Below are positions 1 to 33,466 of a stretch of DNA of 64,000 nucleotides, in pieces (within the stretch, counting starts at the first letter, position 1; the number at the start of each line of letters is the position of its first letter). The DNA is taken from assembly GCA_964187785.1 (NCBI GenBank), contig OZ076409.1, forward strand, positions 74,836,001 to 74,900,000, given 5' to 3'. Under the pieces are notes generated by a model that saw only the letters and a program-made list of their open reading frames with translations, was not told the origin of the DNA and made no database searches. A program made the translations under genes and the position numbers. Source of the DNA: Amphiscolops sp. MND2022 (taxonomy: Eukaryota).

Positions 1-1023
1 GTATCTTTGTTCAACCGTACACGTCTAGGTGCCCGGATTTCTATTCATTAAAGTATGTTGCGCGTGTGGGTAGGGCCCCTGGCGCGCTCTTGTGTCCCTG
101 TTCTCATAACTGCAATTTCCGGCAGCATTCTGAGCGATTTTCTAAACTATCCATACGATTCGGCTGAAATTTGGCATGTGAGTTCCTATGACAGTTCTAA
201 GAAACATTTCCTACTGGCGTTTTGCCCGGAAAATTTTTTTTGTTGACTTATAACGGTTTTTTTGGCCAAAAAATGCGATTTTTTCAAAAAAAATTTTTTT
301 CGGAGCCCATATCTTTTTTCAGGGTGCCCGGAGCGGGACGCGTTAAACTGATTATAAACTCTACGGTTCATGGGCTTTACGGAGAACCTAGGCTCGTTTC
401 GATCGGACAAATAGTCTTGGAGATATAACGGCATTTTTTGAGAATTTTTTGGAAATTTTTCTAACGGTCCAGCTTATCTTTGCCATTTTTTCGAAAATGT
501 ACTCGCCTAAAGGCCTCCCCTGGCCGGTTTTAATCCCAGCAAAACCATTTGGCCCTAAATACGGAGTTTCAGCGTTCCAGCATTCCCGGGCGAAAAGTTG
601 TGGGACTTAGAAAAATTTCAAAATTTTTCAAAAATTTTTTTTCCGTTTTCCGCCCTCCCCCCCGAGGGGAAAAGACCCCCCAACCAGTAATTTGAGTGAA
701 TTCATGTGGAAAGGCCATGTTTAGAGAAGAAAAATGCCGTTTAGATCGTCTTTTTATTTTAACCTGTCGTTGACTTATGTTGTTTTGAAGGTGATGTTTG
801 GATGTGTGAAGCATGTGAAAAGGTAATTTATTGTGTCTTTAGCTCTTCTAAAAGTCATTGAGATACACGGTGTGTGACTCAGAAAGTGTTTAATTCTAAT
901 TTAGCAATGCATCAACACTTTTTTGTGTCTTTTGACTCTGTTTTAAAAAATTTTTCCGACTAAAATCAAAAATTATTTATAATTATTCACATTTTTTTTC
1001 TGATCTCATGACTCGAAACAGTT

Positions 1024-1067
1024 GAGTACATTCCATCTCCCTTCACGGGGGAGATGAGAATGTACTC
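1024..1067 (+). other. Long hairpin type H1 (GAGTACATTC CATCTCCC-loop-GGGAGATG A GAATGTACTC), example copy
   Basis: Inverted repeat with variable loop, about 260-280 nt before the end of the ~1.27-kb units (e.g. also 3589-3631); also present in the 2185-bp and 4763-bp units. Confidence 0.88.
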
Positions 1068-1257
1068 TTTAGAGACCAGGTACTACAGTACTTACCTTCC
1101 CCGAGCAACGCCCCATAAAAATTGCGTTTTGATCCAGATATTTTGACATAATTTTATCTTTGTAATTTGACTGGAAATGAAGAAAATGCCGCACGTGCTC
1201 TTTTATATCAAGTATCTTAACAACGCCATCTCTTTTACGTCAACGCCCCATAGTTCA

Positions 1258-1310
1258 CATCAACGCCCACCGTCCGTGGGCATGCCGAGGCATGCCCTTC
1301 GACGACGTAT
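1258..1310 (+). other. Conserved subterminal motif, first of 26 copies: CATCAACGCCCACCGTCYGTGGGCATGCCGAGGCATGCCCTTCGACGACGTAT (9-bp hairpin at 1278-1297)
   Basis: Found about 20-40 nt upstream of 26 of the 31 CTRR junctions and almost invariant across otherwise divergent units. Confidence 0.92.
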
Positions 1311-3892
1311 ACCAAGATATACTCCCGAGCGCGGTAGCCGCTAGGTGGTCGGTATTCTTTACTACCTCATGCTTTGAGGGCGGGGTAGGGCCCCCTGCCC
1401 GATCCTAATCCTTAGGATTTTAAACATAAGGCCAATAATACGGATTTTGGCGATTTCGAAAACTAACCTTACGATTTGGCTGAAATTTTGCATGCGGCTC
1501 CCTATGACAAATATAAGAACAAATCCCTAGTGGCATTTTGCTGGGAAAATTCAGTTTTTGGGTCAAAATCACTATTTTATGTCCAAAAAAAGGCGTTTTT
1601 TCGGAAAATTTTTTTTCAAGAGCCCATATCTCGCTCCCAGGTGCTCGGAGCGGGTCGCATGTGGACGTCGATATTGCTAGGCACTTCGTAAGGAGTCCGT
1701 AGACAAATTTTCGTACAGATCGGATGAAAATTGACTTAGTAATAAAAAACTTTGATTTGCATTTTTTCGAAAATTTATATAATCCCAGTGTATCTCTGCC
1801 GTTTTTTGCCCAGATTTTTTTCCAGGACCTCTCCTAAAGGCCTCCCCTGGCCGGTTTACCTCGCAGAAAAACCATTTGGCCCGTTTGCCGCAGTTTCAGC
1901 GTTCCAGGATTCCCCGGGTAAAAGTAAAATGACTTAGAATTTTTTCGAAAAATTTTCAAATTTTTTTTTTTCAACTTCAGACCTCCCAAAGTCAAGAAAC
2001 GTCCACACAACTAGTATTGCAAGTGAATGCATGTGGAAAGTGCTCGAATAGACGAGAAAAATGAGCTATTATAAACCTCTGTAGCTCAACCTGACGTTGA
2101 CTTATGACAATTTTAGTGTGAGCTTGCTATATGGTAAAAAAATTCAAAAATTGAAAATCGAAGCTAAGTCTCATCCAAAACTCATCGGAATACGTTCAAT
2201 CTATCCCAAAGTGGTTTATTTCCAGTTGTCTAGTGCAGCACCACCATTCAAAGCATTCAAAGTCCTTTTTGACTAATTTATATAAGTTTTGACATCGTCT
2301 TATCCATTCGAAAGTTGAAGCAGTTAAGTACATTCCATCTCCCCTCCGTGGGAGATGGTAATGTACGCGCAAAAAGCCAAGTACTATTGCCCTTTTTCTA
2401 CATGGAGTGGACCTAGAAATGCATTAGCGTGAGCTCCACGCTGCTTGCAGTAGCCCTTACAGGTGTTGTAACTTTGTTACAAAACTAACTATGTTACTAA
2501 TCATAAAAAAAATGTTACAATCGAAAAATTATTTTCATTAATTATATTTACACGTTTTGTTGTCAATCACAATAACTACAGCTACCGCCCTGGCCTGATT
2601 GTTCAACCGTGCACGTCTAGGTGCCGGTGTTTTCTTCACTTTTGAGGAAGTTGCGCGTGTGGGTAGGGCCCCTGGCGCGCTCCGTTGTCTCCCTGTTTAT
2701 ATCTTCGTAATTTTGAACAATTTTTTGGGATCTCGAAAACTGGCCACACGATTTGGCTGAAATTTTGCATGCGGCTTCCTATAACACTTCTAAGAACTAA
2801 TCCCTAGTGGCGTTTTGCTGGGAAAATTTTTTTTGTTGACTTATTCACATTTTTAGGGTCAAAAAAAGGCGTTTTTTTGAAAAAATTTTTTTCCAGAGAC
2901 AATTACTCAAAACTGGTGCACCCAGCGCAGTAACGCCTAGCTGATTTATTGTTGGGCATTTCATGAGGAGTCCGTATACAAATTTTTGTCCAAATCGGAT
3001 TAAAATTGATTGAGAAATAACTGAAAATTTGAGGAGTTTTTTTGGAAATTTTCGAAAACACAGTCTATCTCTGCCGTTTTTTGCCTAAAATTTTTTTGAG
3101 ACACTCTCCTAAAGACCTCCCCTGGCCGGTTTACCTCCCAGCAGAACCATTTGGCCCTAAATACGGAGTTTCAGCGTTCTAGCATTCCTGGGCGAAAAGT
3201 TGTGGGACTTAGAAAAATTTTTTGGAAACGCAAAATGTGTAAAGTCAACTTCAGGCCTCTCAAAGTCAAGGAACTTCCACACAACTAGTATTGCAAGTGA
3301 ATGCATGTGGAAAGTACTCGAATAGACGAGGAAAATGAGCTATAGAACGTCTCTGTATCTTAACTTGACGTTGACTTATGATAATTTTAGTGTGAGCTTG
3401 CTATGTGACAAAAAAATTCAAAATTGAAAATCGAAGCTAAGTCTCATCCAAAACTCATCGGAACACGTTCAGTCCGTCTCAGAGCGGTTCATTTCCATCT
3501 GTCTAGTACAGCAACACCATTCAAGGTCATTTGATTCATTTTTAAAGGATTTGAAATGGTCTTATTCATCCGAGAGCACAAAACAGTTGAGTACATTCCA
3601 TCTCCCTTTCTGGGGAGATGAGAATGTACTCGCTAAAGTCCAGATACCACAGCCCGATTTTGTTTCTCTGCGACGCAAATTTTTGATAGTGCACGTAACT
3701 ACTGGTCTTTTGACTGAATTTTGTATTTACATTGACGTGACATATGGTCCGTTTGGTCCTTACAACAACATACACATGACTAACGTCAACGCCACATACT
3801 GTTACCAACGCCCACCGTCCGTGGGCATGCCGAGGCATGCCCTTCGACGACGTATGCCAAATACCCCCTCCCGACGCGCACTCTTTCGCTAG

Positions 3893-6800
3893 GTGCGGGG
3901 GGGAAACCCCAACAAAATTTTTGGAGGATTCGGGTAGGGTCCTGAATCCGAGTTCAGTGCTGCCAGCTTTCGTTAAGAAAATTTGGATAGGATTCGGGAT
4001 CTCGTGATCTAACCATAGGATTTTAAAGTTGGAGCGGCCCCCACCAGATTTTCCGAAAATTAGCGCCCCCCACCGGGTTCCATACCCCGGAAAATTTTTT
4101 TCTGGCCACACGGGCGACCGTTAGGGGGTCATTTTAGGGGTAAAATTCATATTGGGCCACATAACTTTTTTTCTGTTGATTTAAAACTTTGGGACCCTGC
4201 TAAAAGTTTCTTGACCGTGTTGCAGGGGCCCCGGAGGTCCAAACCAAATTTTTCTATCTTGAAGCTATCTCCAAGTACCCCCCCGCCCAAAACGTTATTT
4301 TTCCGGAAACGCAGGTTTTTGACCCGGAAGGAGTCGTCGGAGCGCGGGGTCGTTAGGTGATGTATTGGGGACGGCCTTGAGACGAAGTGGGGGACATGTA
4401 GTTTGCCAACCCCAGTTTACCCCCCGGACGGGAAATGACCGTTATATGAGCGGGAAAATTGCCCCCCTCCACGTTTTACCGCTATTTCCGGTGTGAAGGA
4501 GTGGGAGTAGCGCGTCGGGTGCCATATATCAAAAGTAGGTTTAAACAAGGACCTATCGGAAACATGTGGTTTGGGACCCCCTGGACCAACCCGTTAGCGG
4601 GAAATGGGGCTTCCGGCTCCTTTTTTTACGGTTAAAAATGGAAAATGGGCATTGAGGGGTAAATATCTCGTGAACGCGTGGAGCTACGGTGTCCTTCACT
4701 ACTACAAGGTTTCATACCCATGATATGGTGCCTTCAGGGGGGCAAACAGATTTCCGCTATCTATCACCGTTACGGACTTGGCCCCCCAGGCTAACCGTTA
4801 AGTGACCGGAAATGTCATATTTTGAGCCCAAAGGGTCGGTCTCAGCCAGGGAACGTTAGGTAACTTATTGTAGTACTCATTGAGACGAGTTGGGGGACAT
4901 AGTTTCAGTCACCCCCCGTTACCCCTTAGGACCGGAAATGACCGTTATGTGAGTAAAATTGCCATTTTTGTCCTATTTGAAGGCCATTTAGATGCGGAAG
5001 GAGTGGTAATAGGTGCTTGGACACTATATGAAGTAAGGGAGGACGTGAGGCGAGCATTCGGACATAACCGTTATTTTGACCCTAAAGTCCCCCTGGTACC
5101 GTAAACGACCGGAAATGGTCAAATTTTGTATTTTTAGGGTACAAATGTTTGGTATTTTATGGAATAAAGTACATGGAAGGTGTTTCAAAGGCATCCAGAA
5201 ATGAACATAGTCATGAAACCTTGAGGGGGGTAACGGTATATAACACCGGAAGTCCAAGCCGTTGGACACAGTATAGGTTTTTGGGTTTTAAAATGCTTAT
5301 GAACGTACATTTGTGGGTTGAATTGTTCTAATATTGACTATTTTCGATATTTGTTGACATTAAAGGTTTTTCCAATAGTTTCAGGGACCTCCAAAGCTTC
5401 AATCAACATAACCTTTACATTATGATAGCCTTTCAAGTTGGCCTGGTGTCAACTTGGAAGGGCTATCCTTCACAAATCGTATATCAAGTGTGTTTTTGAG
5501 TAGGTTTTTATCACTTTAGTATCAATTAGAGCTTAATCATTAGTTTGCCAACGACAAAAACCATGTCGTGATGATTCCGTTAGTAGAAGAATAGTTAACA
5601 ACTTGTTGACAAAGTTGATTTTTTGCATTTAAAATGTTTCCTAAATGCCAGGAAAACGATTTACGTTATAAATGGTACTGATTGACCCAAATAACAGTTT
5701 AAAAAAGTTAAACATTATTTTTTCGTTTCATTATAGAAGCTGAAACCTCACGTTTTAACTTAATTAACGTCAACGCCACATACTTTACATCAACGCCCAC
5801 CGTCTGTGGGCATGCCGAGGCATGCCCTTCGACGACGTATACCAAAATCCAATATATCTACACCCAATTGCGGTAGCGGCTAGGTGCGGGGGGGTAACCC
5901 CAACAAAATTTTTGGAGGATTCGGGTAGGGTCCTGAATCCGAGTTCAGTGCTGCCAGCTTTCGTTAAGAAAATTTGGATAGGATTCGGGATCTCGTGATC
6001 TAACCATAGGATTTTAAAGTTGGAGCGGCCCCCACCAGATTTTCCGAAAATTAGCGCCCCCCACCGGGTTCCATACCCCGGAAAATTTTTTTCTGGCCAC
6101 ACGGGCGACCGTTAGGGGGTCATTTTAGGGGTAAAATTCATATTGGGCCACATAACTTTTTTTCTGTTGATTTAAAACTTTGGGACCCTGCTAAAAGTTT
6201 CTTGACCGTGTTGCAGGGGCCCCGGAGGTCCAAACCAAATTTTTCTATCTTGAAGCTATCTCCAAGTACCCCCCCGCCCAAAACGTTATTTTTCCGGAAA
6301 CGCAGGTTTTTGACCCGGAAGGAGTCGTCTGAGCGCGGGGTCGTTAGGTGATGTATTGGGGACGGCCTTGAGACGAAGCGGGGGACATGTTGTTTGCCGA
6401 CCCCAGTTTACCCCCCGGACGGGAAATGACCGTTATATGAGCGGGAAAATTGCCCCCCTCCACGTTTTACCGCTATTTCCGGTGTGAAGGAGTGGGAGTA
6501 GCGCGTCGGGTGCCATATATCAAAAGTAGGTTTAAACAAGGAACTATCGGAAACATGTGGTTTGGGACCCCCTGGACCAACCCGTTAGCGGGAAATGGGA
6601 CTTCCGCCTCCTTTTTTTACGGTTAAAAACGGAAAATGGGCATTGAGGGGTAAATATCTCGTGAACGCGTGGAGCTACGGTGTCCTTCACTACTACAAGG
6701 TTTCATACCCATGATATGGTGCCTTCAGGGGGGCAAACAGATTTCCGCTATCTATCACCGTTACGGACTTGGCCCCCCAGCCTAACCGTTAAGTGACCGG

Positions 6801-9800
6801 AAATGTCATATTTTGAACCCAAAGGCTCGATCCTAGCCGGGCAACGTTAGGTAACAAATTGTAGTACTCATTGAGACGAGTTGGGGGATCTAGTTTCAGT
6901 CACCCCCCGTTACCCCTTGAGACCGGAAATGACCGTTATGTGAGTAGAATTGCAATTTTTATACCTTTTGAAGGGCATTTAGGTGCGGAAGGAATGGTAA
7001 TAGGTGCTTGGACACTATATGAGGTAAGGGAGGACGTGAGGCGAGCATTCAGACATAACCGTTATGTTGACCCTAAAGTCCCCTTGGTACCGTAAACGAC
7101 CGGAAATGGTCAAATTTTGTGTCTATTGGGTACAAATGTTTGGTATTTTGTTAACGGTATATAGCACCGGAAGTCCAAACCGTTAGTTACAGAATAGGTT
7201 TTTTGGTTTCAAAATGTCTTTAGGCGTAGTTTTGTGGGTTGAATCGTCATAATATCAACTAATACGGACTTTTTTCGGAAATAAAATTTTTTCACATTAG
7301 TTTCAGGGACCTCCAATGTTTCAGTCAACATAACCGTTACATTTTGATAGCCTTTCAAGTTGGCCTGGTGTCAACTTGGAAGGGCTATCCTTCTAAAATC
7401 GTTAATCAAGAGTGTTTTTGGGTAGGTATATGTTGCATTAGTACCAATTAGAGCTTCATCAACAGTTTGCCAACGGCAAAAACGATGTCGTGATAATTCC
7501 GTTATAAGAATATTAATTAACAAATTGTTTCCAAAGTTGATTTTTTCCATTCGAAATGTGTCCCAATGCCACCAAATTGAATAAAATAATAAATGGTATT
7601 GACTAAAACTAAATAACATTGAAAAAGAAGCTCAACATTTTTAATAGGTCTCATTATGGAAGCTGAAACCTCACGTTTTAACTTAATTAACGTCAACGCC
7701 ACATACTTTACATCAACGCCCACCGTCTGTGGGCATGCCGAGGCATGCCCTTCGACGACGTATACCAATTACATATATATCTACACCCACCCGCGGTAGC
7801 AGCTAGGTGCGGGGGGGAAACCCCAACAAAATTTTTGGAGGATTCGGGTAGGGTCCTGAATCCGAGTTCAGTGCTGCCAGCTTTCGTTAAGAAAATTTGG
7901 ATAGGATTCGGGATCTCGTGATCTAACCATAGGCTTTTAAAGTTGGAGCGGCCCCCACCAGATTTTCCGAAAATTAGCGCCCCCCACCGGGTTCCATACC
8001 CCGGGAAATTTTTTTCTGGCCACACGGGCGACCGTTAGGGGGTCATTTTAGGGGTAAAATTCATATTGGGCCACATAACTTTTTTTCTGTTGATTTAAAA
8101 CTTTGGGACCCTGCTAAAAGTTTCTTGACCGTGTTGCAGGGGCCCCGGAGGTCCAAACAAAATTTTTCTATCTTGAAGCTATCTCCAAGTACCCCCCCGC
8201 CCAAAACGTTATTTTTCCGGAAACGCAGGTTTTTGACCCGGAAGGAGTCGTCGGAGCGCGGGGTCGTTAGGTGATGTATTGGGGACGGCCTTGAGACGAA
8301 GTGGGGGACATGCAGTTTGCCAACCCCAGTTTACCCCCCGGACGGGAAGTGACCGTTATATGAGCGGGAAAAATGCCCCCCTCCACGTTTTACCGCTATT
8401 TCCGGTGTGAAGGAGTGGGAGTAGCGCGTCGGGTGCCATATATCAAAAGTAGGTTTAGACAAGCATCTATCGGAAACATGTGGTTTGGGACCCCCTGGAC
8501 CAACCCGTTAGCGGGAAATGGGGCTTCCGCCTCCTCTTTTTACGGTTAAAAACGGAAAATGGGCATTGAGGGGTAAATATCTCGTGAACGCGTGGAGCTA
8601 CGGTGTCCTTCACTACTACAAGGTTTCATACCCATGATATGGTGCCTTCAGGGGGGCAAACAGATTTCCGCTATCTATCACCGTTACGGACTTGGCCCCC
8701 CAGCCTAACCGTTAAGTGACCGGAAATGTCATATTTTGAGCCCAAAGGGTCGGTCTCAGCCAGGGAACGTTAGGTAACTTATTGTAGTACTCATTGAGAC
8801 GAGTTGGGGGACATAGTTTCAGTCACCCCCCGTTACCCCTTAGGACCGGAAATGACCGTTATGTGAGTAAAATTGCCATTTTTGTCCTATTTGAAGGGCA
8901 TTCAGATGCGGAAGGAGTGGTAATAGGTGCTTGGACACTATATTAGGTAAGGGAGGACGTAAGGCAAGCATTCGCACATAACCGTTATGTTCACCCTAAA
9001 GTCCCCCTGGTACCGTAAACAACCGGAAATGGTCAAATTTTGTGTCTATTGGGTACAAATGTTTGGTATTTTGTAAATAAAAGTATCTATTAGGTGTTTC
9101 GACGGTCTGCAGTAGTGAACACAGTCATGAAACCTTGTGGGGGGGTAACGGTATATAGCACCGGAAATCCGAACAGTTGGAGACAGGATAGGTTTTTTGG
9201 TTTTAAAATGTCTTTCGGCGTACTTTTGTCGACTATTATGGACTATTTTTAAAAAATAAAGTTTTTCCATATAGTTTCAGAGACTCCGAAACCTCAACCA
9301 ACATAACCGTTACCTTATGATAGCCTTTCAAGTTGGCCTGGTGTCAACTTGGAAGGGCTATCCTTCAAAAATCGTTATTCAAGTGTGTTTTTGGGCATGT
9401 TTGTATCATTTTAGAATCAATTAGAGCTTCAAGAAAAGTTTGCCAACGACAAAAACTATGTCGTGATGATTCCGTTATTAAAATGATGGTTAACAAAATG
9501 TTGATAAAGTTGATTTTTTACATTTCAAATGTGTCCTAAAAGCCAGAAAACCTCTTTGCCAAAAAAATGGTATTGATTGATTTGTATATAACAGGTAATA
9601 AAAGTTCAAATTGATTATTACGTTTCATTATTCAAGCTAAAACTTCATAACATAGTTTAATTAACGTCAACGCCACATACTTTACATCAACGCCCACCGT
9701 CTGTGGGCATGCCGAGGCATGCCCTTCGACGACGTATACCAAATACATACCCAAACGACGCCCGTACATCCCGGGCTAGGTGCCGGGATTTCTATTCGTT

Positions 9801-12800
9801 CAGGGAAGATGCGCGCTGTTGGGGAGGGTCCCGGGCGCGCTCAGGTGTTTTGGGTCTTTCAACTTTCCAGAACGGGTCTGCTGGGAACGATCTCGAAAAC
9901 TATCCATACGATTTGACTGAAATTTTGCATGTGGCTCCCAATGGACATTGTAAGAACAAATCCCTACTGGCGTTTTGCTGGGAAAAATCGAAATGTTGGT
10001 CAAAAATGCAATTTTCCGACAAAATTTTTGACTTTTTTTTCTTTGACAGTCTATATCTCGCCACAGGGTTACGCTAGCTACCCTAAACCCTGCTAATTAT
10101 AATTTGCAAACTGTCTCAGGAATGCGGTGTGAAATTTTCAGGTCGATCGGACTAAAACTCAGCGACTTAGAGCGTTTTTTTAGGTGCATTTTTTGACATT
10201 TTTTGCGTTTGCTGATTTATCTCTGCCGTTTTTTGCCAAAATTTTTTCTGAGACACTCTCCTAAAGACCTCCCCTGGCCGGTTTACTTCCCAGCAAAACC
10301 ATTTGGCCCTAAATACGAAGTTTCAGCGTTCTAGCATTCCCGGGCGAAAAGTTGTGGGACTTAGAAAAATTTTTTGAAAACGCAAAATGTGTAAAGTCAG
10401 CTTCAGGCCTCCCAAAGTCAAGGAACTTCCACACAACTAGTATTGCAAGTGAATGCATGTGGAAAGTACTCGAATAGACGAGGAAAATGGGCTATAGAAC
10501 GTCTCTGTATCTTAACTTGACGTTGACTTATGGTGTTTTGAGTGTGAGCTTGCTATATGGTAAAAAATTCAAAAGATGAAAATCGAAGTTTGTCTCATCC
10601 AAAACTCATCGGAATACGTTCAATGCATCCCGAAGCGAATCAATTCCAGGTGTCTAGTGCAGCAACACCAATCAAGACCATTTGACCCATTTTTATAAGT
10701 TTTGACACCGTATTATTCATCCGAGAGCACGAAACAGTTGAGTACATTCCATCTCCCTCTCAGGGGAGATGAGAATGTACTCGCTAAAGTCCAGGTACTA
10801 CAACCCATATTTGTTTTTTGCGACGCTCTCATGCTAGTGCGCATACTTATTAATCTTTTAACTGATTTTTTTTTGTCGGCACTTTGACTTTGACCTGACA
10901 TATAGTGAATATTTTGTCCTTTTAATATACACATGACTAACATCAACGCCCCATCCTTGCATCAACGCCCCCCGTCCGTGGGCATGCCGAGGCATGCCCT
11001 TCGACGACGTATACCAAGATATACTCCCGAGCGCGTTAGCCTAGGTGCGGGGGGGTAACCCCAACAAATATATTGGAGGATTCGGGTAGGGTCCTGAATC
11101 CGATTTTAACTCTAATAGCTATCGATAGGAAATCTTGCAAAAATTTCGGGATCTCGTGATCTAACCATAGGATTTTAAAGTTGGAGCGGCCCCCACCAGA
11201 TTTTCCGAAAATTAGCGCCCCCCACCGGGTTCCATACCCCGGAAAATTTTTTTCTGGCCACACGGGCGACCGTTAGGGGGTCATTTTAGGGGTAAAATTC
11301 ATATTGGGCCACATAACTTTTTTTCTGTTGATTTAAAACTTTGGAACCCTGCTAAAAGTTTCTTGACCGTGTTGCAGAGGCCCCGAAGGTCCAAACCAAA
11401 TTTTTCTATCTTGAAGCTATCTCCAAGTACCCCCCCGCTCAAACCGTTATTTTTCCGGAAACGCAGGTTTTTGACCAGGAAGGAGTCGTCTGAGCGCGGG
11501 GTCGTTAGGTGATGTATTGGGGACGGCCTTGAGACGAAGTGGGGGACAAGTAGTTTGCCAACCTCAATTTACCCCCCGGACGGGAAATGACCGTTATATG
11601 AGCGGGAAAATTGCCCCCCTCCACGTTTTACCGCTATTTCCGGTGTGAAGGAGTGGGAGTAGCGCGTCGGGTGTTATATAACAAAAGTAGGTTTAGACAA
11701 GGACCTATCGGAAACATGTAGTTTGTGACCCCCTGGACCAACCCGTTAGCGGGAAATGGGGCTTCCGCCTCCTTTTTTTAGTGCTAAAACCGTAAAATGG
11801 GCATTGAGGGGTAAATATCTCGTGAACGCGTGGAGCAATCGTGTCCATCACTACTACAAGGTTTCATACCCATGATATGGTGCCTTCAGGGGGGCAAACA
11901 GATTTCCGCTATCTATCACCGTTACCGACTTGGCCCCCCAGCTTAACCGCTATGTGACCGGAAATGTCACTTTTTGAGCCCAAAGGGTCGGTCCCAGCCG
12001 GGGAACGTTAGGTAACTTATTGTAGTACTCAATGAGACGAGTTGGGGGATATAGTTTCAGTCACCCCCCGTTACCCCTTGGGACCGGAAATGACCGTTAT
12101 GTGGGTAAAATTGCAATTTTTATACTTTTTTAAGTGTATTTAGGTGCGGAAGGAGTGGTAATAGGTGCTTGGACACTATATGAGGTAAGGGAGGACGTGA
12201 GGCGAGCATTCGGAAGTAACCGTTATGTTGACCCTAAAGTCCCCCTGGTACCGTAAACGACCGGAAATGGTCAAATTTTGTGTCTATTGGGTACAAATGT
12301 TTTGTATTTTGTAGATAAAAGTATCTATTAGGTGTTTCGACGGTCTACAGTAGTGAACATAGTCATGAAACCTTGTGGGGGGTAACGGTATATAGCACCG
12401 GAAGTCAAACCGTTGGAGACAGGATAGGTTTTTTGGTTTTAAAATGTCTTTCGGCGTAATTTTTTCGACTCTTGTGGACTATTTTTAAAAATTAAAGTTT
12501 TTCCATATAGTTTCAGAGACTCCGAAACCTCAACCAACATAACCGTTACCTTATGATAGCCTTTCAAGTTGGCCTGGTGTCAACTTGGAAGCGCTATCCT
12601 TCTGAAATCGTTAATCAAGAGTGTTTTTGGGTAGGTATATATTGCATTAGTACCAATTAGAGCTTCATCAACAGTGTATCAACGACAAAAACTATGCCGT
12701 CATGATTCCGTTATTAGAATCATAGTGAGCAAATTGTTGAAAAAAATGGTTTTTTCCATACAAAATGTGTCCTAAATGCCAGGAAACCAATTTACCTAAC

Positions 12801-15800
12801 AAATGGTATTAATTGGAATGTTTGTAACAGATTTATAAAAGTTCAAATTGAATATTACATTTCATAATGGAAGCTGAAACGTCATATTTTAGTTTAATTA
12901 ACGTCAACGCCACACACTTTACATCAACGCACACCGTCTGTGGGCATGCCGAGGCATGCCCTTCGACGACGTATGACAAATCCTTATCAAACGACGCCCG
13001 TACATGCCGGGCTAGGTGCGGGGGGGAAACCCCATCCCTTATCTTGGAGGATTCGGGTAGGGTCCTGAATCCGAGTTCAGTGCCGCCAGCTCTCAGTAGA
13101 AATCTGGGCATTTTTTTGCGATCTCGTGATCTAACCATAGGATTTTAAAGTTGGAGCGGCCCCCACCAGATTTTCCAAAGTTATTCGCCCCCCACCGGGT
13201 TCCAGCGAGATTGAAATATTTTGACGGGGTACACGGGCGACCGTTAGGGGTCATTTTGGGGGTAAAATTTATATCCGGTCGCATAACTTTTTTCCTGTTG
13301 GTTTAAAACTTTGGGACCCTGCTAAAAGTTTCTTGACCGTGTTGCAGTGGCTCCGGAGGTCCAAACCAAATTTTTCTATCTTGAAGCTATCTCCAAGTAC
13401 CCCCCCGCCCAAACCGTTATTTTTCCGGAAACGCCGGTTTTTGACCCGGAAGGAGTTGTCTGAGCGCGGGGTCGTTAGGTGATGTATTGGGGACGGCCTC
13501 GAGACGAAGCGGGGGATATATAGTTTGCCGACCCCAGTTTACCCCCCGGACGGGAAATGACCGTTATTTGAGCGGGAAAAATGCCCCCCTCCACGTTTTA
13601 CCGCTATTTCCGGTGTGAAGGAGTGGGAGTAGCGCGTCGGGTGTTATATAACAAAAGTAGGTTTAGACAAGGACCTATCGGAAACATGTAGTTTGGGACC
13701 CCCTGGTCCAACCCGTTAGCGGGAAATGGGGCTTCCGCCTCCTTTTTTTACTGCTAAAACCGTAAAATGGGCATTGAGGGGTAAATATCTCGTGAACGCG
13801 TGGAGCAATCGTGTCCATCACTACTACAAGGTTTCATACCCATGATATGGTGCCTTCAGGGGGGCAAACAGATTTCCGCTATCTATCACCGTTACCGACT
13901 TGGCCCCCCAGCCTAACCGCTATGTGACCGGAAATGTCACTTTTTGAGCCCAAAGGGTCGGTCCCAGCCGGGGAACGTTAGGTAACTTATTGTAGTACTC
14001 AATGAGACGAGTTGGGGATATAGTTTCAGTCACCCCCCGTTACCCTTTGGGACCGGAAATGACCGTTATGTGGGTTAAATTGCAATTTTTATACTTTTTC
14101 AAGTGTATTTAGGTGCGGAAGGCGTGGTAATAGGTGCTTGGACACTATATGATGATAGGGAGGACGTGAGGCGAGCATTAAAAAATAACCGTTATGTTGA
14201 CCCCAAAGTCCCCCTGGTACCAGAAGTGACCCGTAACGGTCAAATTTTGTGTTTTTAGGGTACAAATGATTAGAATTTTATGGGAAAAAAGTACCTGGTC
14301 GGTGTTTCAACGGCTTGCCGTAGTGAACATAGTCCTGAAACCTTGTGGGGGGTAACGGTATATAGCACCGGAAGTCCAAACCGTTGGAGACAGGATAGGT
14401 ATTTTGGTTTTAAAATGCCTATAAGCGTACTTTTGTGGGTTGAATCGTTTCAATATCGACTAATTTGGATATTTTTTTGACATTGAAGGTTTTTTCAATA
14501 GTTTCAGGGACATCCAATGCTTCAATCAATATAACCGTTACCTTATGATAGCCTTTCAAGTTGGCCTGGTGTCAACTTGGAAGGGCTATCCTTCGAAAAT
14601 CGTAATTCAAGTGTGTTTTTGAGTACGTTTTTATTACTTTAATATCAATTAGAGCCTAATCATTAGTTTGCCAACGACAAAAACTATGACGTGATGATAC
14701 CGTTAGTAGAAGAATAGTTAACAATTTGTTGACAAAATTGATTTTTTGCATTTTAAATGTTTCCTAAATGCCAGGAAAACAATTTATCTAATGAATGGTA
14801 CTGATTGAACCCAAGTATCATTTGAAAAAAAGTAAAACATTGTCAAAACGCTGAAACCTCACGTTTTAGGTCACTTAACGTCAACGCCACATACTTTACA
14901 TCAACGCCCACCGTCTGTGGGCATGCCGAGGCATGCCTTTCGACGACGTATACCAATTACATATATATCTACACCCACCCGCGGTAGCAGCTAGGTGCGG
15001 GGGGGAAACCCCATCCCTTATCTTGGAGGATTCGGGTAGGGTCCTGAATCCGAGTTCAGTGCCGCCAGCTCTCAGTAGAAATCTGGGCATTTTTTTGCGA
15101 TCTCGTGATCTAACCATAGGATTTTAAAGTTGGAGCGGCCCCACCAGATTTTCCAAAGTTATTCGCCCCCCACCGGGTTCCAGCGAGATTGAAATATTTT
15201 GACGGGGTACACGGGCGACCGTTAGGGGTCATTTTGGGGGTAAAATTTATATCCGGTCGCATAACTTTTTTCCTGTTGGTTTAAAACTTTGGGACCCTGC
15301 TAAAAGTTTCTTGACCGTGTTGCAGTGGCTCCGGAGGTCCAAACCAAATTTTTCTATCTTGAAGCTATCTCCAAGTACCCCCCCGCCCAAACAGTTATTT
15401 TTCCGGAAACGCCGGTTTTTGACCCGGAAGGAGTTGTCTGAGCGCGGGGTCGTTAGGTGATGTATTGGGGACGGCCTCGAGACGAAGCGGGGGATATATA
15501 GTTTGCCGACCCCAGTTTACCCCCCGGACGGGAAATGACCGTTATTTGAGCGGGAAAAATGCCCCCCTCCACGTTTTACCGCTATTTCCGGTGTGAAGGA
15601 GTGGGAGTAGCGCGTCGGGTGTTATATAACAAAAGTAGGTTTAGACAAGGACCTATCGGAAACATGTAGTTTGGGACCCCCTGGTCCAACCCGTTAGCGG
15701 GAAATGGGGCTTCCGCCTCCTTTTTTTACTGCTAAAACCGTAAAATGGGCATTGAGGGGTAAATATCTCGTGAACGCGTGGAGCAATCGTGTCCATCACT

Positions 15801-18800
15801 ACTACAAGGTTTCATACCCATGATATGGTGCCTTCAGGGGGGCAAACAGATTTCCGCTATCTATCACCGTTACCGACTTGGCCCCCCAGCCTAACCGCTA
15901 TGTGACCGGAAATGTCACTTTTTGAGCCCAAAGGGTCGGTCCCAGCCGGGGAACGTTAGGTAACTTATTGTAGTACTCAATGAGACGAGTTGGGGATATA
16001 GTTTCAGTCACCCCCCGTTACCCTTTGGGACCGGAAATGACCGTTATGTGGGTTAAATTGCAATTTTTATACTTTTTCAAGTGTATTTAGGTGCGGAAGG
16101 CGTGGTAATAGGTGCTTGGACACTATATGATGATAGGGAGGACGTGAGGCGAGCATTAAAAAATAACCGTTATGTTGACCCCAAAGTCCCCCTGGTACCA
16201 GAAGTGACCCGTAACGGTCAAATTTTGTGTTTTTAGGGTACAAATGATTAGAATTTTATGGGAAAAAAGTACCTGGTCGGTGTTTCAACGGCTTGCCGTA
16301 GTGAACATAGTCCTGAAACCTTGTGGGGGGTAACGGTATATAGCACCGGAAGTCCAAACCGTTGGAGACAGGATAGGTATTTTGGTTTTAAAATGCCTAT
16401 AAGCGTACTTTTGTGGGTTGAATCGTTTCAATATCGACTAATTTGGATATTTTTTTGACATTGAAGGTTTTTTCAATAGTTTCAGGGACCTCCAATGCTT
16501 CAATCAATATAACCGTTACCTTATGATAGCCTTTCAAGTTGGCCTGGTGTCAACTTGGAAGGGCTATCCTTCGAAAATCGTAATTCAAGTGTGTTTTTGA
16601 GTACGTTTTTATTACTTTAATATCAATTAGAGCCTAATCATTAGTTTGCCAACGACAAAAACTATGACGTGATGATACCGTTAGTAGAAGAATAGTTAAC
16701 AATTTGTTGACAAAATTGATTTTTTGCATTTTAAATGTTTCCTAAATGCCAGGAAAACAATTTATCTAATGAATGGTACTGATTGAACCCAAGTATCATT
16801 TGAAAAAAAGTAAAACATTGTCAAAACGCTGAAACCTCACGTTTTAGGTCACTTAACGTCAACGCCACATACTTTACATCAACGCCCACCGTCTGTGGGC
16901 ATGCCGAGGCATGTCTTTCGACGACGTATACCAATTACATATATATCTACACCCACCCGCGGTAGCAGCTAGGTGCGGGGGGGTAACCCCAACAAATATA
17001 TTGGAGGATTCGGGTAGGGTCCTGAATCCGATTTTAACTCTAATAGCTATCGATAGGAAATCTTGCAAAAATTTCGGGATCTCGTGATCTAACCATAGGA
17101 TTTTAAAGTTGGAGCGGCCCCCACCAGATTTTCCGAAAATTAGCGCCCCCCACCGGGTTCCAGCGTGATTGAAATATTTTGACGGGGTACACGGGCGACC
17201 GTTAGGGGTCATTTTGGGGGTAAAATTTATATCCGGTCGCATAACTTTTTTTCTGTTGATTTAAAACTTTGGAACCCTGCTAAAAGTTTCTTGACCGTGT
17301 TGCAGGGGCCCCGAAGGTCCAAACCAAATTTTTCTATCTTGAAGCTATCTCCAAGTACCCCCCCGCTCAAACCGTTATTTTTCCGGAAACGCAGGTTTTT
17401 GACCCGGAAGGAGTCGTCTGAGCGCGGGGTCGTTAGGTGATGTATTGGGGACGGCCTTGAGACGAAGTGGGGGACAAGTAGTTTGCCAAACTCAATTTAC
17501 CCCCCGGACGGGAAATGACCGTTATATGAGCGTGTAAAATGCCCCCCCTCCACGTTTTACCGCTATTTCCGGTGTGAAGGAGTGGGAGTAGCGCGTCGGG
17601 TGTTATATAACAAAAGTAGGTTTAGACAAGGACCTATCGGAAACATGTAGTTTGGGACCCCCTGGACCAACCCGTTAGCGGGAAATGGGGCTTCCGCCTC
17701 CTTTTTTTAGTGCTAAAACCGTAAAATGGGCATTGAGGGGTAAATATCTCGTGAACGCGTGGAGCAATCGTGTCCATCACTACTACAAGGTTTCATACCC
17801 ATGATATGGTGCCTTCAGGGGGGCAAACAGATTTCCGCTATCTATCACCGTTACCGACTTGGCCCCCCAGCCTAACCGCTATGTGACCGGAAATGTCACT
17901 TTTTGAGCCCAAAGGGTCGGTCCCAGCCGGGGAACGTCAGGTAACTTATTGTAGTACTCAATGAGACGAGTTGGGGGATATAGTTTCAGTCACCCCCCGT
18001 TACCCCTTGGGACCGGAAATGACCGTTATGTGGGTAAAATTGCAATTTTTATACTTTTTCAAGTGTATTTAGGTGCGGAAGGAGTGGTAATAGGTGCTTG
18101 GACACTATATGAGGTAAGGGAGGACGTGAGGCGAGCATTCAGAAATAACCGTTATGTTGACCCTAAAGTCCCCCTGGTACCGTAAACGACCGGAAATGGT
18201 CAAATTTTGTGTCTATTGGGTACAAATGTTTTGTATTTTGTAGATAAAAGTATCTATTAGGTGTTTCGACGGTCTACAGTAGTGAACATAGTCATGAAAC
18301 CTTGTGGGGGGTAACGGTATATAGCACCGGAAGTCAAACCGTTGGAGACAGCTTAGGTTTTTTGGTTTTAAAATGTCTTTCGGCGTAATTTTTTTGACTC
18401 TTGTGGACTATTTTTAAAAATTAAAGTTTTTCCATATAGTTTCAGAGACTCCGAAACCTCAACCAACATAACCGTTACCTTATGATAGCCTTTCAAGTTG
18501 GCCTGGTGTCAACTTGGAAGCGCTATCCTTCTGAAATCGTTAATCAAGAGTGTTTTTGGGTAGGTATATATTGCATTAGTACCAATTAGAGCTTCATCAA
18601 CAGTGTATCAACGACAAAAACTATGCCGTCATGATTCCGTTATTAGAATCATAGTGAGCAAATTGTTGAAAAAATGGTTTTTTCCATACAAAATGTGTCC
18701 TAAATGCCAGGAAACCTATTTACCTAACAAATGGTATTAATTGGAATGTTTGTAACAGATTTATAAAAGTTCAAATTGAATATTACATTTCATTATGGAA

Positions 18801-21800
18801 GCTGAAACGTCATATTTTAGTTTAATTAACGTCAACGCCACACACTTTACATCAACGCACACCGTCTGTGGGCATGCCGAGGCATGCCCTTCGACGACGT
18901 ATACCAAATACAAACCCAAACGACGCCCGTACATCCCGGGCTAGGTGCGGGGGGGTAACCCCAACAAATATATTGGAGGATTCGGGTAGGGTCCTGAATC
19001 CGATTTTAACTCTAATAGCTATCGATAGGAAATCTTGCAAAAATTTCGGGATCTCGTGATCTAACCATAGGATTTTAAAGTTGGAGCGGCCCCCACCAGA
19101 TTTTCCGAAAATTAGCGCCCCCCACCGGGTTCCATACCCCGGAAAATTTTTTTCTGGCCACACGGGCGACCGTTAGGGGGTCATTTTAGGGGTAAAATTC
19201 ATATTGGGCCACATAACTTTTTTTCTGTTGATTTAAAACTTTGGAACCCTGCTAAAAGTTTCTTGACCGTGTTGCAGGGGCCCCGAAGGTCCAAACCAAA
19301 TTTTTCTATCTTGAAGCTATCTCCAAGTACCCCCCCGCTCAAACCGTTATTTTTCCGGAAACGCAGGTTTTTGACCCGGAAGGAGTCGTCTGAGCGCGGG
19401 GTCGTTAGGTGATGTATTGGGGACGGCCTTGAGACGAAGTGGGGGACAAGTAGTTTGCCAACCTCAATTTACCCCCCGGACGGGAAATGACCGTTATATG
19501 AGCGTGAAAAATGCCCCCCTCCACGTTTTACCGCTATTTCCGGTGTGAAGGAGTGGGAGTAGCGCGTCGGGTGTTATATAACAAAAGTAGGTTTAGACAA
19601 GGACCTATCGGAAACATGTAGTTTGGGACCCCCTGGACCAACCCGTTAGCGGGAAATGGGGCTTCCGCCTCCTTTTTTTAGTGCTAAAACCGTAAAATGG
19701 GCATTGAGGGGTAAATATCTCGTGAACGCGTGGAGCAATCGTGTCCATCACTACTACAAGGTTTCATACCCATGATATGGTGCCTTCAGGGGGGCAAACA
19801 GATTTCCGCTATCTATCACCGTTACCGACTTGGCCCCCCAGCCTAACCGCTATGTGACCGGAAATGTCACTTTTTGAGCCCAAAGGGTCGGTCCCAGCCG
19901 GGGAACGTTAGGTAACTTATTGTAGTACTCAATGAGACGAGTTGGGGGATATAGTTTCAGTCACCCCCCGTTACCCCTTGGGACCGGAAATGACCGTTAT
20001 GTGGGTAAAATTGCAATTTTTATACTTTTTCAAGTGTATTTAGGTGCGGAAGGAGTGGTAATAGGTGCTTGGACACTATATGAGGCAAGGGAGGACTTGA
20101 GGCGAGCATTCGGAAATAACCGTTATGTTGACCCTAAAGTCCCCCTGGTACCGTAAACGACCGGAAATGGTCAAATTTTGTGTCTATTGGGTACAAATGT
20201 TTTGTATTTTGTAGATAAAAGTATCTATTAGATGTTTCGACGGTCTACAGTAGTGAACATAGTCATGAAACCTTGTGGGGGGTAACGGTATATAGCACCG
20301 GAAGTCAAACCGTTGGAGACAGGATAGGTTTTTTGGTTTTAAAATGTCTTTCGGCGTAATTTTTTCGACTCTTGTGGACTATTTTTAAAAATTAAAGTTT
20401 TTCCATATAGTTTCAGAGACTCCGAAACCTCAACCAACATAACCGTTACCTTATGATAGCCTTTCAAGTTGGCCTGGTGTCAACTTGGAAGCGCTATCCT
20501 TCTGAAATCGTTAATCAAGAGTGTTTTTGGGTAGGTATATATTGCATTAGTACCAATTAGAGCTTCATCAACAGTGTATCAACGACAAAAACTATGCCGT
20601 CATGATTCCGTTATTAGAATCATAGTGAGCAAATTGTTGAAAAAAATGGTTTTTACCATACAAAATGTGTCCTAAATGCCAGGAAACCTATTTACCTAAC
20701 AAATGGTATTAATTGGAATGTATGTAACAGATTTATAAAAGTTCAAATTGAATATTACATTTCATTATGGAAGCTGAAACGTCATATTTTAGTTTAATTA
20801 ACGTCAACGCCACACACTTTACATCAACGCACACCGTCTGTGGGCATGCCGAGGCATGCCCTTCGACGACGTATGACAAATCCTTATCAAACGACGCCCG
20901 TACATCCCGGGCTAGGTGCGGGGGGGAAACCCCATCCCTTATCTTGGAGGATTCGGGTAGGGTCCTGAATCCGAGTTCAGTGCCGCCAGCTCTCAGTAGA
21001 AATCTGGGAAATTTTTTGCGATCTCGTGATCTAACCATAGGATTTTAAAGTTGGAGCGGCCCCCACCAGATTTTCCAAAGTTATTCGCCCCCCACCGGGT
21101 TCCAGCGTGATTGAAATATTTTGTCGGGGTACACGGGCGACAGTTAGGGGTCATTTTGGGGGTAAAATTTATATCCGGTCGCATAACTTTTTTCCTGTTG
21201 GTTTAAAACTTTGGGACCCTGCTAAAAGTTTCTTGACCGTGTTGCGGGGGCTCCGGAGGTCCAAACCAAATTTTTCTATCTTGAAGCTATCTCCAAGTAC
21301 CCCCCCGCCCAAACCGTTATTTTTCCGGAAACGCAGGTTTTTGACCCGGAAGGAGTCGTCTGAGCGCGGGGTCGTTAGGTGATGTATTGGGGACGGCCTT
21401 GAGACGAAGCGGGGGATATATAGTTTGCCGACCCCAGTTTACCCCCCGGACGGGAAATGACCGTTATATGAGCGGGAAAAATGCCCCCCTCCACGTTTTA
21501 CCGCTATTTCCGGTGTGAAGGAGTGGGAGTAGCGCGTCGGGTGTTATATATCAAAAGTAGGTTTAGACAAGGACCTATCGGAAACATGTGGTTTGGGACC
21601 CCCTGGACCAACCCGTTAGCGGGAAATGGCGTTTCCGCTTCCTTTTTTTACTGCTAAAACCGTAAAATGGGCATTGAGGGGTAAATATCTCGTGAACGCG
21701 TGGAGCAATCGTGTCCATCACTACTACAAAGTTTCATACCCATGATATGGTACCTTCAGGGGGGCAAACAGATTTCCGCTATCTATCACCGTTACGGACT

Positions 21801-22096
21801 TGGCCCCCCACCCTAACCGCTATATGACCGGAAATGTCACTTTTTGAGCCCAAAGGGTCGGTCCCAGCCGGGGAACGTTAGGTAACTTATTGTAGTACTC
21901 AATGAGACGAGTTGGGGGACATAGTTTCAGTCACCCCAGTTACCCCTTGGGACCGGAAATGACCGTTATATGTGTAAATTTGCAATTTTTATACTTTTTG
22001 AAGTGCATTTAGGTGCGGAAGGAGTGGTAATAGGTGCTTGGACACTATATGATGATGGGGAGGACGTGAGGCGAGCATTCGAAAATAACCGTTATG
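3893..22096 (+). repeat. ~1.97-kb unit family, 8 full and 1 partial near-identical copies, interrupted by one 1265-bp unit (9780-11044)
   Basis: Long blocks recur nearly verbatim, e.g. GGAGTGGGAGTAGCGCGTCGGGTG and GATAGCCTTTCAAGTTGGCCTGGTGTCAACTTGGAAG. Units 13016-14994 and 14995-16972 are virtually identical. Confidence 0.93.
5424..5467 (+). other. Long hairpin type H2 (GATAGCCTTTCAAGTTGGC-loop-GTCAACTTGGAAGGGCTATC), example copy
   Basis: ~19-bp stem with G-T pairs, present in the full-length ~1.97-kb units and in the ~1.39-kb units (43347-43389, 48601-48643, ~49970-50012). Confidence 0.88.
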
Positions 22097-22296
22097 NNNN
22101 NNNNNNNNNNNNNNNNNNNNNNNNNNNNNNNNNNNNNNNNNNNNNNNNNNNNNNNNNNNNNNNNNNNNNNNNNNNNNNNNNNNNNNNNNNNNNNNNNNNN
22201 NNNNNNNNNNNNNNNNNNNNNNNNNNNNNNNNNNNNNNNNNNNNNNNNNNNNNNNNNNNNNNNNNNNNNNNNNNNNNNNNNNNNNNNNNNNNNNNN
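22097..22296. other. Assembly gap (200 N)
   Basis: Run of exactly 200 N; the true length is unknown. Confidence 0.99.
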
Positions 22297-28620: not shown

Positions 28621-28820
28621 ACATCGTAAAAGCTAAAAAGTAGGGGAAGCACATAGTTCTACTCTGATAGTGAACGTGTGTTGTTCTCCACATTAGGTTT
28701 TAAAACAACATGTAATTTTGTGTAAAAATGTAAAAGTAGGCACTGTAGGATATCGCACAAAGTTCTACTACACAGGATGGACACCGTGCGATACTCTGTT
28801 TGTTCACTGTAGGTTAGTTT

Positions 28821-28951
28821 GCTGGAATCGACGGAGAGCGTGGTTCCAGGTAGGTTTATATTAGGTTACTTAGCTGGAATCGACGATGAGCGTGGTTCCA
28901 GGTAGGTTTAAATTAGGTTGGTTTGCTGGAATCGACGATGAGCGTGGTTCC
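28821..28951 (+). repeat. 52-bp tandem repeat, ~2.5 copies (core GCTGGAATCGACGATGAGCGTGGTTCC)
   Basis: Core starts at 28821, 28873 and 28925; a further isolated copy lies at 33510-33535. Confidence 0.9.
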
Positions 28952-29638
28952 GGAAATGCTCAATCAGAATAAAAAAATTCATTTAGGTTTTGAAACATCA
29001 TGTAGCTTCGAGGTATGTTGCCCTTTTGAGCCATCTGCCTCTTAAAACTAGAACTTGAAGTAACCTTCATTCTATTTTTCAAGTGTATCCTTGTGTGTTG
29101 CCCTTTTGAGCCATCCGCAATGATACACTTCTTTTTTTTTGAAAATGGAGGTTAACCTGGTAAAAATGACAGCGATCCAGTTGAAGAAGAAGACGATGAA
29201 GAACGATGTCGCGGACAGCAGACGATGGTGCAGCTGAAGCAGAGCAGATGATGACGATCTAGAAGCAAGACCCCAGTGTAAAAGCTTGTGTAGCCCTTTT
29301 GAGCCTTCCAAGCTTATACACTAAATATAAAAATGAAAGTCTTAACAAATATAACCAGTGTGGCAGCACGTGTAGCCCTTCTGAGCCTTCCGTGCTGAGA
29401 CACTCTCCTTAATAAAAATAGGTCGAGAAATTCTAAAATCGGAATTATTAGACCAAAACATGACTTCCCTAAAACTGACTTTTTTCTACTTCGGACTTTT
29501 TGACTAAAAGACTCCAAGACTGAGACTTAATTGACTTTTTTCTAAAACCTAACCGTCCTTTTTCCTTACGTAGTGAGAATGAGTGGAGTTGAGCATTGAG
29601 ACGTTTTTGGATACATTCAAACTAGTGTTTATACCAGA

Positions 29639-30120
29639 GCGTCCAGATGAAGAAGAAAGAAGATTCGGAAGATGAGAATAATTAATATGTATAATAGTAA
29701 TAATTATAGTAGTTGCGTCCAGATGAAGAAGAAAGAAGATTCGGAAGATGAGAGTAATTGATATTTATAATAGTAATATTTATAGTAGGTGCGTCCAGAT
29801 GAAGAAGAAAGAAGATTCGGAAGTAGAGAATAAATAATATTTATAATAGTAATATTTATAGTAGGTGCGTCCAGATGAAGAAGAAAGAAGATTCGGAAGT
29901 AGAGAATAAATAATATTTATAATAGTAATATTTATAGTAGCTGCGTCCAGATGAAGAAGAAAGAAGATTCGGAAGATGAGAGTATTTGATATTTATAATA
30001 GTAATATTTATAGTAGGTGCGTCCAGATGAAGAAGAAAGAAGATTCGGAAGTAGAGAATAAATAATATTTATAATAGTAATATTTATAGTAGGTGCGTCC
30101 AGATGAAGAAGAAAGAAGAA
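29639..30120 (+). repeat. 76-bp minisatellite, ~6.3 copies
   Basis: GCGTCCAGATGAAGAAGAAAGAAG starts at 29639, 29715, 29791, 29867, 29943, 30019, 30095. Confidence 0.96.
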
Positions 30121-30311
30121 AAGAAGACGGTCCAGAACACGGAAAGAAGATTTGGGAAAAGATTATAATAACTCTGACATGTTTTTGTACTTCACTTTTT
30201 TGAAAGGTTGTAGGTTCAGAATAGGCTGTAGTGATTAGGTTGTATAAATTTCATTGTTCGGCATGATATGCAAATCACTGGGAGCCCTAACCGATAGTCC
30301 TCGTTTTGTAG

Positions 30312-33129: not shown

Positions 33130-33358
33130 TCGCCTGGATACACTACAATACTTTAGCGCTGTTGCGGTTGAGTGGCTTGTCGCCCTTTTGAGCCGTCAGT
33201 CACTCTCCGCAATTGAACTTAAAAATTTGATTTTGTTTATGGTAAAATAATTACCATTTTGTTTGAAATAAAAGCAAAGAAGTAAGCCTTTTTTGGGAAC
33301 AACTAAAACTAATTGATTGTTTTAATCCCACAGGTTTTTTTCACTCAATTGTCTTCAG

Positions 33359-33466
33359 GTACTTTTTTTCAACAGGCATCTCTATCCCTAAGGTAATTAA
33401 GTAGATTTAAATTAAGTACTTTTTTTCAACGGGCATCTATATTCTTAAGGTAATTAAGTAGATTCT
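33359..33466 (+). repeat. 57-bp direct duplication
   Basis: GTACTTTTTTT(T)CAACRGGCATCT..AAGGTAATTAAGTAGATT at 33359 and 33416. Confidence 0.85.

Follow-up and report, generated by a model that had tools for sequence, protein, structure and literature searches.

The window, by which we mean the whole stretch of 64,000 nucleotides analysed here, holds a head-to-tail array of 31 units that all lie on the same strand (Table 1). The units are joined at CTAG/GTG or close variants of it, and in the genome as a whole (1.07 Gb) the junction combined with the G-rich core described below was matched 3404 times, against 48 matches for a reversed control. On the sequence evidence, the units can be classed as a divergent Helitron-like family of rolling-circle DNA transposons, whose elements start with GTG and end with CTAG or CTGG. 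The unit at 3893 is 88.5% identical over its first 1071 nt to an autonomous element of lineage N, and the short units are therefore taken as non-autonomous members of the family.

Table 1. Features of the array, with positions counted from the first nucleotide of the window; H1 and H2 are the two hairpins in the head of a unit.
Feature	Position	Strand	Remarks
Head-to-tail array, 31 units	29..64000	+	all units on the same strand
Starts of units 1-16	29, 1345, 2621, 3893, 5884, 7807, 9780, 11045, 13016, 14995, 16973, 18945, 20916, 33727, 35004, 39767	+	
Starts of units 17-31	41034, 42322, 43698, 44985, 46257, 47532, 48932, 50323, 51593, 52870, 55055, 56324, 57595, 60668, 62853	+	
H2, lineage-B-type unit	60..87	+	GCGCG/CGCGC
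Unit junction CTAG/GTG	3889..3895	+	3' end of one element, 5' end of the next; fits target CTNG^GT
H1	3899..3910	+	GGGG-GAAA-CCCC; sequence differs between families
H2, lineage-N unit	3924..3951	+	GA, outer GGATTC, GGG, loop, CCT, GAATCC, GA
Conserved core	3932..3943	+	inner stem GGG/CCY and 6-nt loop TAGGGT
Autonomous lineage-A element	22297..33726	+	behind assembly gap, own head missing here
Transposase ORF, part after the gap	22297..28620	+	HUH-Y2 Rep, PIF1 helicase, C-terminal GIY-YIG
ORF2, candidate OB-fold (RPA/CST-like) ssDNA-binding protein	31996..33129	+	conserved between lineages
H2, lineage-I unit	35035..35062	+	CGGCCGGC/GCCGGCCG, loop TCGGGT
H2, lineage-C-type unit	51627..51653	+	GCCAT/ATGGC
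First 2185-bp unit, H1	52877..52890	+	
First 2185-bp unit, H2	52897..52932	+	AT-rich, without G core
H2, lineage-H unit	56359..56380	+	GGCGC/GCGCC, closed by GA/GA
H2, 3.07-kb unit	57624..57655	+	outer stem CCGGCC/GGCCGG; no autonomous partner seen
Second 2185-bp unit, H2	60695..60730	+	AT-rich, without G core

An assembly gap (N, 22097-22296) joins a lineage-N unit to the autonomous element of lineage A, and because the transposase reading frame spans this gap, its apparent start at 21970 is false. An intact copy with 99% identity (L011+L012) is 13.5 kb long, starts with GTG followed by H1 and H2, and ends with CTAG. The transposases of the family comprise about 2200-2850 aa, have intact HUH motifs I, II and III with two tyrosines, and are 26-64% identical between lineages over 740 residues; Helitron_like_N was found in the Rep segments of all 14 lineages, and PIF1 is present. 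Matches to the Rep number 135 in the genome, and C1 has dozens of these on its + strand at 70.5-76.5 Mb; a wider search among 50% clusters gave 415 relatives at E 0.001. At C1 70.5-76.5 Mb, C2 102-104 Mb and C3 2.5-3.7 Mb, intact transposase ORFs of many lineages lie by the dozen in megabase clusters, and on C1 all these ORFs are on one strand. Upstream of the transposase ORF, a fold-back repeat of about 90 nt was seen in lineages F and B (L021:5095-5185 and 6095-6190; L023:6425-6520). A search of 12 proteins for DUF6570 or an AP endonuclease gave no match at E 0.01 with a library that may lack a DUF6570 model.

The second reading frame, ORF2, is 28-54% identical to the window copy across lineages, has four conserved cysteines and 25 relatives, and matches no Pfam family. 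Its predicted structure (pLDDT 83.5) gave a weak match to RPA/CST (E 1e-4, TM 0.18-0.28 among the top matches listed), and its atlas matches were CTC1, POT1, CDC24 and MEIOB, with a recognition score below the threshold of the tool.

Heads, bodies and tails are combined as mosaics across the units of the window, and near-identical 1.97-kb units carry several different tails. Since recombination shuffles heads and bodies in this way, a tree of unit bodies is unable to date changes in the heads. Inside the 1.27-kb units, a long inverted repeat lies about 300 nt from the end (minus-strand self matches at 1025-1064, 2327-2366 and 3591-3628), the autonomous element contains minisatellites of 52 and 76 bp (28810-30119), and the 4.76-kb unit an array of four 336-bp repeats (37233-38584). 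A subterminal palindrome, GGGCATGCC-GA-GGCATGCCC, lies in a conserved block about 60 nt before CTAG (3806-3856) at most unit ends (e.g. 56237-56290), and an AGG/CCT variant of it retains the pairing; it is strong in many families and missing in others, including the autonomous copy of the window. Some tails have GCG(GT/TT)AGC just before CTAG (5869-5876 in the window; 37 of 130 junctions in C1:74.74-75.00 Mb). These belong to the GCGNNAGC type of DNA mini-hairpin with non-GNRA loops, a type described in the accessible text of PMC13037366 as far more stable as DNA than as RNA.

An earlier note on this DNA had described a stem-loop with a conserved GGGWAGGGYCC core near the start of nearly every unit. 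We found one such core per unit in 29 of the 31 units, and the six stems quoted as examples are all present where the note had placed them. The motif is enriched: allowing one mismatch or less, it has 29 matches in the window, all on the + strand, where 2.7 are expected and the largest of 100 shuffles gave 7. The motif itself had to be refined, to a GGG/CCY stem around a KAGGGN loop with a free last base. In 853 kb of genomic DNA chosen near arrays we collected 326 heads, of which three were removed as reverse reads of the + strand hairpin, leaving 323 heads (311 with the core and 12 without it).

The hairpin, H2, is built of an outer stem of 4-9 pairs with free sequence, an internal loop of 0-5 nt per side, the inner stem GGG/CCY and the loop KAGGGN. 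The base after CC, opposite the first G of the core, is C or T in 314 of 315 heads (the 311 plus 4 from metagenomes), while the last base of the 6-nt loop is free (T 170, C 84, G 35, A 26; n=315). Genome-wide, replacing the first G of this G-Y pair by A gave 4 matches vs 19 for the control, and a purine opposite the first G gave 9 vs 45, with 4 of the 9 resembling true elements. The first G of the core lies at +37 to +44 in 286 of the 311 units, and at +38 to +48 in the 29 window units. Loops reading TCGGGT, TTGGGT, AAGGGT and AGACGGGH are also present. Folded as single-stranded DNA, positions 3926-3949 reach -5.6 kcal/mol (z -3.6, 0/200 shuffles). In the lineage-N unit, the tandem GA/GA that closes the stem is predicted to form sheared pairs.

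The earlier note had also claimed that the letters of the stem change between units while the pairing is kept, and had proposed to align the heads. A sequence alignment of 34 family representatives recovered the four inner pairs only and missed the outer stem. Plain alignment yields the inner pairs alone because the varying length of the internal loop shifts the register, and we therefore used an arm-swap test, in which every left arm was folded with every right arm around a fixed core. Own arms gave a mean of -8.25 kcal/mol, compared with -5.25 kcal/mol for permuted arms, a difference reached in none of 20000 permutations (34 families). The outcome was unchanged at three clustering levels (37, 34 and 22 families) and with RNA parameters, and was specific to the position of H2 (z -10.1 vs -1.9 to +1.7 at 20 other offsets). 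It is a property of the set more than of each family: a right arm that does better than its own shuffles was found in only 19 of the 34 families, and in only 7 was the own arm the best partner.

As a phylogenetic control, the test was repeated with one autonomous head per lineage (13 lineages), and none of 50000 permutations reached the observed value. H2 stands at the start, within the first 70 bases, of all 31 autonomous copies with a located head (13 lineages) and of 2 copies of the fourteenth; in lineage O, no head was found within 10 kb upstream of the one copy examined. The stem type is constant within each transposase lineage, and related transposases go with related stems. Linkage alone suffices for such lineage-specific stems, and co-evolution with the protein is not implied. 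In lineage A, the right arm is altered in 2 of 6 autonomous copies, and the head of one of these two, an intact copy, has no folding advantage over its shuffles (z -0.5).

H2 is thus a real, covarying structure of the + strand. It folds better on the + strand in 29 of the 34 families and on the - strand in 2, while control windows were balanced (137 vs 137); part of this bias comes from the common core and is hence not independent between families. The tandem 5'-GA/GA, which like the hairpin H1 is absent from the earlier note, was counted 12 times as closing or interrupting the stem, against a single case of its mirror TC/TC, with registers set from Watson-Crick pairs only. On the transposase tree, with states entered by hand, the trait clusters and needs 4 changes, so the count of 12 to 1 does not amount to 12 events. 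In the outer stems, G-T vs A-C counts (4 vs 1) were uninformative.

The strand preference bears on the question whether the paired arms are a duplex palindrome or cruciform bound on both strands, or even functionless, with intramolecular gene conversion keeping them complementary. Perfect inverted repeats rich in GC form many of the outer stems, the complement of 3926-3949 folds too (-3.9 kcal/mol, z -2.5), and H1 has no strand bias (14 vs 20), all of which would suit such an origin. We nevertheless consider it very improbable, given the preference of H2 for the + strand, an inner pair that allows G-T and not A-C, the persistence of internal loops and mismatches, and pairing that is retained in 14 lineages and in other metagenome contigs. 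Selection of H2 as a + strand structure, as the earlier note had proposed, is instead supported by the arm swaps, by the alternation of G-C and G-T at one pair and by the strand bias.

The second and weaker covarying hairpin, H1, lies at about +7 to +21. In lineage A, both sides change in 5 of 5 pairs (0/500 shuffles; 19 of 21 distinct heads, two near-duplicates omitted), where the structure was read from these same sequences and the shuffle ignores kinship. Across families the signal is weaker, reaching p 0.05 in 8 of 34. The two 2185-bp units, which according to the earlier note lack the structure, were found to have H1 and, at the place of H2, a hairpin after all, and are without the G-rich core only. 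The G-T pairs of the latter hairpin favour the + strand. This core-less head has 137 copies in the genome, and no autonomous partner was seen in the regions read. Since a family of 137 copies has the hairpin without the G core, the core is not universally required; the shape of the hairpin is more general.

The nature of the folded strand, RNA or single-stranded DNA, had been left open by the earlier note. The context favours DNA, because the elements that start with the hairpin include autonomous transposons with an HUH-helicase, the hairpin keeps a fixed distance to the inferred nick, and no reverse transcriptase was found among the family ORFs scanned. If H2 acted in RNA, it might be a protein-bound structured 5' leader or a small RNA derived from the 5' end of the element or from array read-through. 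RNA typically has G-U and tandem G-A pairs, covariation and strand bias come out equal with RNA parameters, and the H1 loops of lineage N are GAAA or GTAA. We judge an action in RNA improbable all the same, since the structure is also found in units without ORFs, at the same fixed distance from a DNA junction, and in a family with an HUH-helicase. Rfam gave no family at gathering score in the window, and none of its 8 weak matches in 33000-58000 lies over a head. Moreover, the tails with GCG(GT/TT)AGC at 37 of 130 junctions represent a mini-hairpin type that is far more stable in DNA, as far as the accessible text of PMC13037366 describes it.

Several specific structures were considered and rejected. 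Pistol or HDV-like motifs were the candidates for a ribozyme spanning the junction, for which a conserved partner strand is missing and the 3' palindrome is absent from several families. The loop does not covary with the upstream tetranucleotide, as a guide for CTNG would, and many families lack runs of G or C in H1, judged by eye, that a G-quadruplex or a pseudoknot between loop and H1 would need. Compared by eye with the K-turn consensus, GA/GA stands between Watson-Crick pairs and there is no bulge.

The site at which the elements insert can be read from the flanks outside the junctions. On the left these end with CTGG, CTAG, CTGG, CTTG, CTTG and CTGG, and on the right they start with GT in 6 of 6; among them are one solitary case and two inside a single unit. 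The insertion target is CTNGGT. From Helraiser, which ends with CTAG, we infer a nick after CTNG, and likewise its exact position within the GGT shared at the junctions. In 264 kb around the window, each of the 117 CTAGGT sites of the + strand forms a junction, and none of the 27 on the - strand is used; 49 other CTNGGT sites of the + strand are unused too, and 0 of 144 CTNGGT sites of the - strand are used.

In the same 264 kb, 93 of 129 array neighbours come from different families, and same-family neighbours are enriched (36 vs 12.5). One solitary unit was seen among the first 30 genome matches listed. If heads serve as target, the first units of arrays are expected to be young and the last units old. 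The match to another copy was 0.983-0.993 for three first units, 0.773 for the solitary unit, and 0.887, 0.211 (tail not located), 0.637 and 0.999 for the last units; the median was 0.979, and two further last units at an inversion joint were left out. With one counter-example, these ages are loosely consistent with the head as a landing pad. At C1 near 23.98 Mb (L033), two arrays of opposite orientation abut, with related units on either side of the inverted joint.

Relatives also occur in other samples. A scan of metagenomes with the head pattern gave at least 117 loci, 23 of them with an outer stem of at least 4 pairs, and among the matches listed the whole head was recognized by eye in four contigs. 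One of these has a homologous body (L148, E 3e-18), one has tandem copies of 93% identity at a spacing of 1606 bp (L119), one shows a period of 1399 bp, perhaps from an overlap in the assembly (L117), and the fourth (L156) is without independent support. Inside the unit of L119 (1250-1480), two tRNA-like stretches with a B-box and a T run were noticed by eye, where ARAGORN found no gene. Among viral contigs, no relative was found.

We consider it fairly probable that H2, folded in single-stranded DNA, is an origin signal read by the HUH transposase, which would nick at CTNG^GT, about 35-45 bases further upstream. Either a fork or the PIF1 helicase would expose the + strand, on which H1 and H2 could fold. 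The transposase, perhaps aided by the OB-fold protein ORF2, may then bind H2 by recognizing its shape together with the G-rich core, nick, and keep the 5' G on a tyrosine; the strand would be peeled as far as the next CTAG and joined into the target. More speculatively, a resident head might be the preferred target, so that new copies would enter existing junctions and mixed arrays would grow. For Helraiser, the accessible text of PMC5876387 reports that the left end is needed and that the plus strand is moved, and also that double-stranded donors are required, which counts against an origin in single-stranded DNA.

The hairpin could alternatively serve a later step, as a signal for priming or SSB loading on the peeled strand, with its G-rich loop read by ORF2 or by host CST, POT1 or primase. 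ORF2 is kept across lineages and resembles the OB folds of RPA, CST and POT1, the TAGGG loop resembles the telomere repeat TTAGGG, and the hairpin lies 35-45 nt from the junction instead of at it. On the other hand, the fold matches of ORF2 are weak, the loops TCGGGT, TTGGGT, AAGGGT and AGACGGGH exist, and lineage-specific stems suit a lineage-specific reader equally well as a host reader. A role confined to such a step appears rather unlikely to us.

Returning to the origin signal, a broader reading can be put forward tentatively, which we regard as possible but more doubtful. The folded head would be both origin and landing pad in a eukaryotic HUH lineage outside HLE1 and HLE2. The common G core would admit the transposase of any lineage upstream of any head, the lineage stems would decide which enzyme moves which element, and the outcome would be megabase cassette arrays in a single orientation that spare host genes.

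Left-end recognition and target choice by Helitron-type transposases are poorly defined. Natural hairpin variants matched to fourteen coexisting transposase lineages, together with a target of 6 bp and junctions in the thousands, offer a direct basis for swap and compensation tests. If our reading is true, eukaryotes gain a structured single-stranded origin like those of IS91 and IS608, self-targeting accounts for the multi-megabase mixed arrays, and the system becomes a candidate tool for site-specific integration with a landing pad of about 75 nt. Should both the origin and the landing-pad parts hold, an animal-sized genome would hold an ssDNA integrase that is site-specific and addressed by structure. 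In the literature searched, mostly without subscription papers and Repbase, no account of self-targeted mixed arrays made of GTG...CTAG elements was found.

The family belongs to the Helitron-like superfamily by its HUH Rep, which has two tyrosines and is joined to a helicase of the PIF1 type. With HLE1 (Helraiser) it shares this HUH-Y2 and PIF1 RepHel, head-to-tail junctions, no evident target duplication and the 3' CTRR terminus, as CTAG (263), CTGG (56), CTTG (3) or CTCG (1) at 323 junctions. It differs from HLE1 in the 5' GTG in place of TC: all 323 heads start with GT, which the pattern required and which a junction-first inspection of the window agreed with. The target is CTNG^GT and not A^T, there are two 5' hairpins, almost all copies seen lie in mixed arrays, and the Rep resembles that of Helraiser only faintly (motif III, E 0.18). 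Some Helitrons carry an OB/RPA-like accessory protein, a likeness to ORF2 (PMC6431247, accessible text).

The 5' hairpins are a trait of HLE2. Terminal hairpins with compensatory changes are known from Helitron2 according to the available parts of PMC3627910, and the hairpin as such is therefore not new in kind. One HLE2 family in Sphagnum is described as having a GIY-YIG domain, as here (PMC11417382, in part), and proto-Helentrons share the CTAG end and a 5' stem-loop. In contrast to HLE2, H1 and H2 are not built from an inverted terminal repeat, and no asymmetric terminal inverted repeat was detected: the longest stretch of complementarity to the own tail was 6.29 nt, vs 6.22 for other tails and 6.30 for shuffled ones (153 combinations). 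There is neither a 5' T nor insertion in TT or TC, and the hairpin, whose G-rich loop is invariant, occupies +30 to +65. By the features described in the accessible parts of PMC11417382 and PMC3627910, the family is likely to be set apart from both HLE1 and HLE2.

Among other HUH systems, the third class of Helitrons in Paramecium also lies outside HLE1 and HLE2 and is target-specific with a fixed orientation; it inserts into telomeric repeats and has a CCAA end (PMC13085455, as far as accessible), which sets it apart from our family by description, not by protein comparison. Replitrons are Y1 elements with direct repeats (PMC10288648, in part). The HUH relaxase TrwC integrates into a resident oriT (PMC5714925, in part) and is a model for the landing-pad idea, although it belongs to a conjugative plasmid system, is no transposon and forms no arrays. 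The IS200/IS605 elements differ by their Y1 enzyme, the lack of a helicase and a guide-set target. The enzyme here is Y2, the loop variants leave the tetranucleotide unchanged, and no counterpart of the guide was found 5' of the stem foot, judged by eye. Within that group, TnpA of IS608 reads imperfect top-strand ssDNA hairpins by structure, distant from the cut (PMC3201880, in part), and binding by TnpA-REP needs a mismatch in the stem (PMC3333891, in part).

IS91, as described in the accessible text of PMC13181058, is a Y2 HUH element that inserts 3' of CTTG (also CTCG and CTGG), resembling its own terminus, and has two imperfect subterminal palindromes at oriIS. A tetranucleotide target at the origin end and two imperfect palindromes are likewise found here. 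The bacterial element has a small transposase without a helicase, compared with about 2200-2850 aa including PIF1 in our family, and mixed self-targeted arrays are not mentioned in the accessible part of that source.
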